In this document: positions 25,931 through 26,288 of the stretch, one piece after another
How the letters are laid out: every line of letters begins with the position of its first letter
Numbering within the stretch: position 1 is the first letter of the stretch
NCBI RefSeq assembly: GCF_003334335.1
Contig: NZ_QOWQ01000001.1
DNA length: 64,000 nucleotides
Reading direction: 5' to 3' (one strand)
Origin: Escherichia coli
Lineage (GTDB): Bacteria > Pseudomonadota > Gammaproteobacteria > Enterobacterales > Enterobacteriaceae
Translations under genes and position numbers: made by a program
Notes under the pieces: generated by a model
What the model was told of the DNA's origin: nothing
Seen by the model: the letters and a program-made list of their open reading frames with translations, nothing else
Database searches by the model: none

Positions 25931-25932
25931 TA

Positions 25933-25957
25933 AAAAGGCGCTGAATGGCGCTTTTTT
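25933..25957 (+). terminator. Hairpin with T-run after amiC
   Basis: A-tract, GC stem (GCGC/GCGC), T6 run immediately after amiC stop. Confidence 0.4.
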
Positions 25958-25973
25958 ATGGGAGACCAGAAAC

Positions 25974-25996
25974 AAAAAAACACCCGTTAGGGTGTT
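25974..25996 (-). terminator. Rho-independent terminator of the tRNA-fMet gene
   Basis: On the minus strand: stem ACACCC / GGGTGT with 4-nt loop followed by U7, directly 3' of the tRNA. Confidence 0.5.
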
Positions 25997-26003
25997 CAAT
26001 AAT

Positions 26004-26080
26004 TGGTTGCGGGGGCCGGATTTGAACCGACGACCTTCGGGTTATGAGCCCGACGAGCTACCAGGCTGCTCCACCCCGCG
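26004..26080 (-). tRNA. metZ: Initiator tRNA-fMet (metZ/metW/metV type), single copy
   Basis: Reverse complement reads CGCGGGGTGGAGCAGCCTGGTAGCTCGTCGGGCTCATAACCCGAAGGTCGTCGGTTCAAATCCGGCCCCCGCAACCA, the E. coli initiator tRNA with CAU anticodon and encoded CCA. Confidence 0.9.
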
Positions 26081-26093
26081 TCCGTGGATGCGC

Positions 26094-26121
26094 ACTATAC
26101 TCCGCTCGCGTTTTCATGCAA
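26094..26121 (-). promoter_or_regulatory. Candidate sigma70 promoter for the tRNA-fMet gene
   Basis: On the minus strand TTGCAT, 16-bp spacer, TATAGT, ending about 13 nt upstream of the mature tRNA 5' end. Confidence 0.45.
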
Positions 26122-26288
26122 CCTTTTTTTTACCCCGATCACGGATTTGGCATGATTTTGAACAAAAACAAATCACTAAAGCCTATTTTTTGTGCAAAAT
26201 TTGCGTCAGGGAGAGGCTGCTCATTTCATTAAACGCGGCGGTTTGTTATCTTCGTTGCGCCTTATTTTTTAACCTGAAGAAGAGAACA

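Follow-up and report, generated by a model that had tools for sequence, protein, structure and literature searches.

The window, a stretch of 64,000 nucleotides of Escherichia coli DNA, originates from a contig-level WGS draft (GCA_003334335.1, contig QOWQ01000001.1). The tRNA detection tool ARAGORN reports one tRNA gene in these 64 kb, a tRNA-Met(CAU) encoded on the minus strand in the spacer between amiC and mltA (Table 1), and the Rfam tRNA model RF00005 matches the same interval with 61.4 bits (E = 1.4e-12). The original prediction of a single initiator tRNA gene at this position was thereby borne out. The 417-aa AmiC protein encoded on one side of the spacer does not differ from the common AmiC.

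The tRNA gene is placed as the metZWV operon is, i.e., between mltA and amiC, divergent from mltA and equipped with a promoter region and a terminator of its own. The canonical form of this operon consists of three tandem tRNAfMet1 genes with a period of 110 bp; here, one gene is found and 220 bp are absent. The locus is a copy-number allele of the metZWV operon and not its canonical form. The surviving gene is located in a hybrid context, in which the leader is that of metZ and the trailer that of metV, in the order leader CATCCACGGA, tRNA, trailer ATTATTGAAC. The junction in the deposited sequence contains no gap, N or irregularity.

A sub-threshold Rfam match to RF02900 (Aggregatibacter sRNA 82) was obtained at 25930-26006 on the plus strand with 23.7 bits against a gathering threshold of 51.4 (E = 0.67). 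It overlies the region in which two terminators converge, and chance is its most likely explanation.

Table 1. Features of the amiC-mltA region in the window (positions refer to the 64-kb window).
Feature	Position	Strand	Evidence and remarks
amiC, N-acetylmuramoyl-L-alanine amidase C	24677..25930	+	ORF list; upstream flank of the spacer; position as in K-12
amiC-mltA spacer, 358 bp	25931..26288		Alignment and BLAST against MG1655; amiC stop codon ends at 25930, mltA ATG at 26289
Intrinsic terminator of the tRNA operon	25968..25997	-	Terminator scan; equals the K-12 sequence downstream of metV
81-nt tract (GA + tRNA + AT), common to the metZ and metV contexts	26002..26082	-	BLAST HSP, 100%
Initiator tRNA-fMet, sole copy (tRNAfMet1 type, G46)	26004..26080	-	ARAGORN, Rfam RF00005
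Promoter-like hexamers TTGCAT (26121..26116) and TATAGT (26099..26094)	26094..26121	-	Read from the sequence; equal to K-12 upstream of metZ
mltA, membrane-bound lytic murein transglycosylase A	26289..27386	+	ORF, K-12 annotation; downstream flank, divergent from the tRNA

The tRNA sequence is identical to metZ, metW and metV of K-12 at 77 of 77 positions. Its minimum-free-energy fold is a cloverleaf with a CAU anticodon, in which C1 and A72 are unpaired with six acceptor pairs below. The D stem (GAGC/GCUC) contains the pair A11:U24, a defining feature of initiator tRNAs. The anticodon stem (UCGGG/CCCGA) contains three consecutive G:C pairs (29-31:39-41), and the three G:C pairs of this stem are named as a conserved initiator determinant (PMC3017606). 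Formylation by Fmt and initiation in the P-site would be expected in vivo, judging from the complete identity to K-12 genes annotated as initiators.

For transcription of the gene, a promoter-like TTGCAT/TATAGT pair and a terminator consisting of a hairpin and a T-run had been predicted. Both hexamers are present and separated by 16 nt, 13 nt lie between the -10 element and the mature 5′ end, and the promoter region is identical to that of K-12 base for base, although a consensus promoter scan of positions 25850..26350 called nothing. The pair escapes the scan because TTGCAT fits TTGACA at only three of six positions. The published promoter-down mutations of metZWV are a G-to-A exchange just upstream of the -10 element and a T-to-C exchange within it (PMC3017606), and the position of TATAGT is consistent with them. 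The predicted terminator was detected by the terminator scan as a hairpin, GAACACCC-TAAC-GGGTGTTT, with a T-run behind it and the stem at 25997..25978 on the minus strand.

In E. coli K-12 MG1655, metZ, metW and metV start at 2947387, 2947497 and 2947607, respectively, in a spacer of 578 bp. The tandem triplicate with a period of about 110 bp, which had been assumed for K-12, is thus real, and as the alignment of the spacer finds three copies in the reference, the deviation of the window from it stands. Relative to the K-12 spacer, that of the window lacks exactly 220 bp and matches at every flanking base, so that the supposed shortfall of two units (358 versus 578 bp) is exact. The missing 220 bp correspond to two 110-bp units and include both 33-nt inter-tRNA spacers, which in the K-12-type array are ATTAAAATTTGATGAAGTAAAGCAGTACGGTGA and ATCAAATTTGATGAAGTAAAAGCAGTACGGTGA. 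According to BLAST, this loss is the only indel against MG1655 over the 64 kb, beside 15 substitutions. The locus therefore shares with metZWV of K-12 its position between mltA and amiC, the upstream hexamers, the 77-nt tRNA and the terminator, and differs from it in having one gene instead of three.

The first and the last K-12 copy are identical over a tract of 81 nt, and the longest exact repeat, shared by copies 2 and 3, comprises 94 nt. Due to the identical 81-nt tract, the breakpoints lie somewhere within 26002..26082 and have no finer placement. The single-copy structure is the product expected from an exchange or slippage in the cell as well as from an assembler that threads the repeat once, and the resulting sequence is alike for both.

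The copy number of the array was determined in 5,426 complete RefSeq genomes of E. coli, using queries composed of the leader (100 nt), the array and the trailer (100 nt) and E-value cut-offs that pass only full-length, ungapped matches. One copy was found in 109 genomes, two copies in 116, three copies adjoining amiC in 3,236 and four or more copies in 66. Among the genomes in which amiC adjoins the array, these are about 3.1% with one copy, 3.3% with two, 93% with three and at least 0.5% with four. About 1,900 complete genomes (about a third) were matched by none of the amiC-flanked queries, and in every unmatched example examined another element is located between the array and amiC, namely a type VI secretion and/or a PTS-type sugar cluster. 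In Nissle 1917, for instance, three copies are followed by type VI secretion genes, and several draft contigs with PTS-type or type VI secretion clusters beside the array still carry three copies. The window has no inserted cluster between array and amiC and is arranged as K-12.

The one-copy genomes belong to many haplotypes (98.2-100% identity over the 277-bp query) and include O104:H4, O157:H7 Xuzhou21 and several K-12 derivatives. It follows that the one-copy state originated, or was at any rate reported, repeatedly and independently. At about 3% of the complete genomes in which amiC adjoins the array, one-copy metZWV is ordinary and not rare. The leader-tRNA-trailer structure of the window is shared by the single-copy alleles of SHuffle K-12 C3026, of the O104:H4 strains 2011C-3493 and 2009EL-2050 and of WP7-S17-ESBL-04; the 358-bp spacer was confirmed in C3026, 2009EL-2050 and WP7-S17-ESBL-04. 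In contrast to the window, the best-matching complete genomes lack some of its SNPs, and the window therefore represents a separate isolate. In WP7-S17-ESBL-04, a near relative of the window, gudX is split by an insertion of the IS1203 family (45176-46389 of the retrieved stretch), whereas it is intact in the window.

Several genomes indicate that the size of the array really changes. E. coli HS carries four copies in three separate assemblies (NC_009800.1, NZ_CP185286.1 and NZ_CM173443.1), as does the K-12 derivative XL10-Gold (NZ_CP081008.1). The array and the repeat unit of these four-copy alleles are as in the window and the change is likewise by whole 110-bp units, but in the opposite direction, with one unit gained. 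As the collapse of a repeat by an assembler cannot add units, the four-copy arrays speak for real change. A second case is provided by DHB4 (NZ_CP014270.1), in which three copies are present, and its engineered derivative SHuffle K-12 C3026 (NZ_CP014272.1), in which a single copy lies in a spacer of 358 bp as in the window. One study sequenced the two strains on the PacBio RSII with 10-kb libraries and assembled them with HGAP at 100-225x coverage (PMC4816632). Since kilobase PacBio reads span the 330-bp array, C3026 is best read as a genuine contraction from three copies to one that arose during strain construction. Whole-unit contractions and expansions thus both exist and are reproducible, with one, two, three and at least four copies and with HS and the pair DHB4/C3026 as examples. 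The genome announcement of DHB4 and C3026 is silent on a change in metZWV (PMC4816632). Assuming an intact metY, SHuffle K-12 would have half the initiator tRNA gene dosage.

Other genomes show that the locus misleads assemblers. A genome of strain ST648 that is deposited as complete (CP008697.1/NZ_CP008697.1) contains an 'n' exactly at the site of the array and no tRNA there; the 'n' follows the promoter (2990-3010 of the retrieved stretch), i.e., an unresolved gap is hidden in a finished assembly. Among assemblies of the O104:H4 outbreak clone of 2011, 2011C-3493 has one copy and HUSEC2011 two, and of the related 2009EL-2050 and 2009EL-2071 the former has one copy and the latter two. The K-12 derivatives disagree in the same manner, with one copy in J53, ME8067, MC1061, OV2, MG1655p, AS19-RrmA- and C3026, two in DH5a, C600 and MT102, three in MG1655 and DHB4, and four in XL10-Gold. 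The J53 genome was assembled with Unicycler from 150-bp reads and MinION data and was described with 82 tRNA genes and a deletion of 'four tRNAs' in comparison to MG1655 (PMC5968721). Two of the four tRNAs missing in J53 (NZ_CP028702.1) correspond to the contraction of metZWV, and the other two may belong to another tandem tRNA array.

The one-copy genomes furthermore cluster by sequencing project across unrelated haplotypes, as seen for the GF chicken-meat, WP-ESBL, ABW/OW, STK/STS and TUM series. This clustering suggests, weakly, that the pipelines used contribute to the one-copy calls. A literature search on the WP-ESBL series returned no paper.

Draft genomes were sampled by exact look-ups of the AmiC and MltA proteins of the window, which yielded 17 distinct contigs covering the array, mostly from short-read drafts. 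Three copies were found in 16 of these contigs and one copy in the remaining contig (GCA_030357955.1), and collapse is therefore not the default outcome in drafts. In this small sample, the one-copy rate of 1/17 is not clearly above the approximately 3% of the complete genomes in which amiC adjoins the array. The 94-nt exact repeat would exceed the k-mers that are commonly used with reads of 100-150 nt. A Logan contig of the lineage of the window (ERR11565423) ends 26 nt into the tRNA. As metY, which we take to repeat this tRNA sequence at another genomic site, would make any assembly with short k-mers break at this point, we consider the end of the Logan contig uninformative on the copy number.

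The 15 substitutions between the window and MG1655 comprise six synonymous exchanges, four intergenic ones and five amino-acid changes and look like natural divergence, not like mutagenesis or engineering. In a base-by-base comparison of five sequences, seven alleles of the window (positions 12155, 14810, 14879, 43499, 45586, 48788 and 52774) occur neither in MG1655 nor in any of four near relatives, and six of the seven are changes from G:C to A:T. Four of the seven are located in a 10-kb stretch, for which even the best match among the 5,426 complete genomes is about four mismatches off; an exact match to the window was found in none of these genomes. R3H and G26E, two of the seven alleles, alter the signal-peptide region of PtrA; the others are synonymous or intergenic. 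PtrA with R3H/G26E is encoded on 18 public contigs, and two among the matches listed are the source of the window and the Logan contig that ends inside the tRNA. The source contig has a length of 246,402 bp; a 22.9-kb stretch retrieved from it is contained exactly in the window at 4803..27691, which puts the window at 160001-224000 of the contig. Judged from these sequence comparisons, the source is a non-K-12 isolate closely related to K-12.

An origin of the private SNPs from nanopore errors at methylation motifs was considered and rejected, as only one of the 15 substitutions lies in a CCWGG or GATC context. The assignment of the window to a K-12 laboratory strain was likewise rejected on the basis of the 15 SNPs against MG1655, four of which are located in a 10-kb stretch without an exact match among the complete genomes. 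Among the amino-acid differences to MG1655 are RelA A242T (position 60539) and RecB E303G (position 18591), the latter recB allele being common to two of the four near relatives compared.

With respect to the origin of the single copy, natural copy-number variation, a laboratory background with reduced initiator tRNA and a tandem repeat collapsed during assembly had originally been proposed. Of these, natural variation and collapse both have precedents in the public data, whereas the laboratory background does not agree with the 15 natural-looking SNPs. We give about an even chance to a real, heritable contraction in the sequenced isolate, which would then carry one allele of a common E. coli polymorphism of one to four copies. 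Homologous exchange between the identical 77-nt tRNA sequences, or slippage of replication from one of them to another, would have removed two of three 110-bp units, presumably in the DNA of the isolate and not in the assembler, and the outcome would be the operon promoter directly before and the operon terminator directly after a single tRNAfMet1 gene. A collapse during assembly, somewhat short of an even chance, is a serious alternative. The isolate would in this case possess three (or two) copies, and a short-read assembler would have dropped the two 33-nt spacers, perhaps as leftovers of less than 200 bp. The contig-level draft source keeps this explanation alive, and it agrees with the exact repeats of 81-94 nt at a period of 110 bp, the 'n' in place of the array in the 'complete' ST648 genome, the disagreement between assemblies of the same clone (O104:H4 and the K-12 sublines), the clustering of one-copy calls by project, the one-copy array in the Unicycler hybrid assembly of J53 and the large excess of contractions (225 genomes) over expansions (66 genomes). 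Against it speak the three copies resolved in 16 of 17 public contigs, the share of one-copy arrays in this sample, which does not clearly exceed that of the complete genomes, the long-read data that prove real changes from three copies to one, and the regular junction in the window. A real contraction is slightly favored over collapse because the long-read proof of such an event and the good resolution of the array in drafts are weighed against the draft source and the assembly trouble at this locus.

The remaining explanations are much less probable. An engineered or selected laboratory background, such as a K-12 derivative with a low level of tRNAfMet, could be imagined in view of the seven K-12 derivatives with one copy listed above and of the finding that genetic screens can select for low tRNAfMet (PMC3017606). 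The window contains no scar, cassette or FRT site, its differences from MG1655 are mostly synonymous or intergenic and include seven alleles that are private among the five sequences compared, and the published low-initiator strains have promoter point mutations or a kan replacement and not this structure (PMC3017606), which makes this origin extremely improbable. Hardly more credible, though still very improbable, is an ancestral single copy in a lineage that never triplicated the gene, for which nothing beyond the single copy itself speaks. The flanks are those of K-12 base for base, one, two or three copies are found among sequences that share at least 99.97% identity across about 49 kb, the one-copy genomes are scattered in their distribution, and the three-copy state recurs in every phylogroup context that was sampled, also where an island lies beside the array. 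Going beyond a contraction in a single isolate, an ST10-like, K-12-related lineage marked by PtrA R3H/G26E might be stably one-copy and kept so by an advantage of low initiator dosage in nutrient-poor niches, in line with what was predicted from competition between engineered strains (Samhita, 2014, summarized in PMC9981150). The roughly 3% one-copy and 3% two-copy genomes would then belong to a species-wide balanced and fast-switching dosage polymorphism and would not be noise; this extension appears improbable at present, if less so than the two preceding explanations.

The initiator tRNA level is reported to follow the gene copy number (PMC3017606). Strains that have lost all three metZWV genes grow more slowly, are cold-sensitive and select the initiator less strictly (PMC3017606; PMC11480407), and a loss of some copies is, according to the summary of Samhita et al. 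(2014) in PMC9981150, deleterious in rich and advantageous in poor medium. The effect of dosage on growth and initiation fidelity that had been pointed out is thus correct and already well studied, at least to the extent covered by PMC3017606 and that summary. As far as these accounts go, the dosage or expression of tRNAfMet is likewise reduced in the known low-initiator strains, i.e., the promoter-down mutants D4 and D27 and metZWV::kan (Kapoor et al., 2011, PMC3017606; Samhita, 2014, J Bacteriol 196:2607). In D4, D27 and metZWV::kan, the initiator tRNA is down to about 25% or less, whereas a genuine single-copy allele would, if metY, which lies outside the window and upstream of the nusA-infB operon, is intact, leave two initiator tRNA genes instead of four and about 50% of the initiator tRNA. 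Unlike D4 and D27, the single-copy allele has a wild-type promoter. Given a real contraction, growth in rich medium would be expected to be slightly slower and initiation fidelity somewhat relaxed, as a mild version of the published effects, so that a modest phenotype is plausible and would not be new.

The locus, its repeat structure and the biology of the dosage are already described, and the variation by whole units is visible in public genomes; the single copy in the window represents a common allele or else an artefact of assembly. The copy numbers of metZWV in assemblies, ranging from one to four or more, are in part real and in part probably artefacts. For this reason, tRNA gene counts from draft or hybrid assemblies should not be read as biology without read support, and the practical value of the single-copy metZWV case lies in this caution on tRNA gene counts in E. 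coli assemblies.

Sequence variation within an array was observed on contig ABUZBY010000005.1 (GCA_042225675.1), which carries three copies. At its anticodon, the middle initiator tRNA gene reads TAT in place of CAT (C34 to T) and is called tRNA-Ile by ARAGORN, and the copy on the side of mltA has a C1-to-G exchange. These variant tRNAs are located at 7439-7515 and 7549-7625 of the retrieved stretch, and all other positions equal the tRNA of the window. If genuine, a UAU anticodon on an initiator body would be out of the ordinary; the contig is reported in 16 samples.
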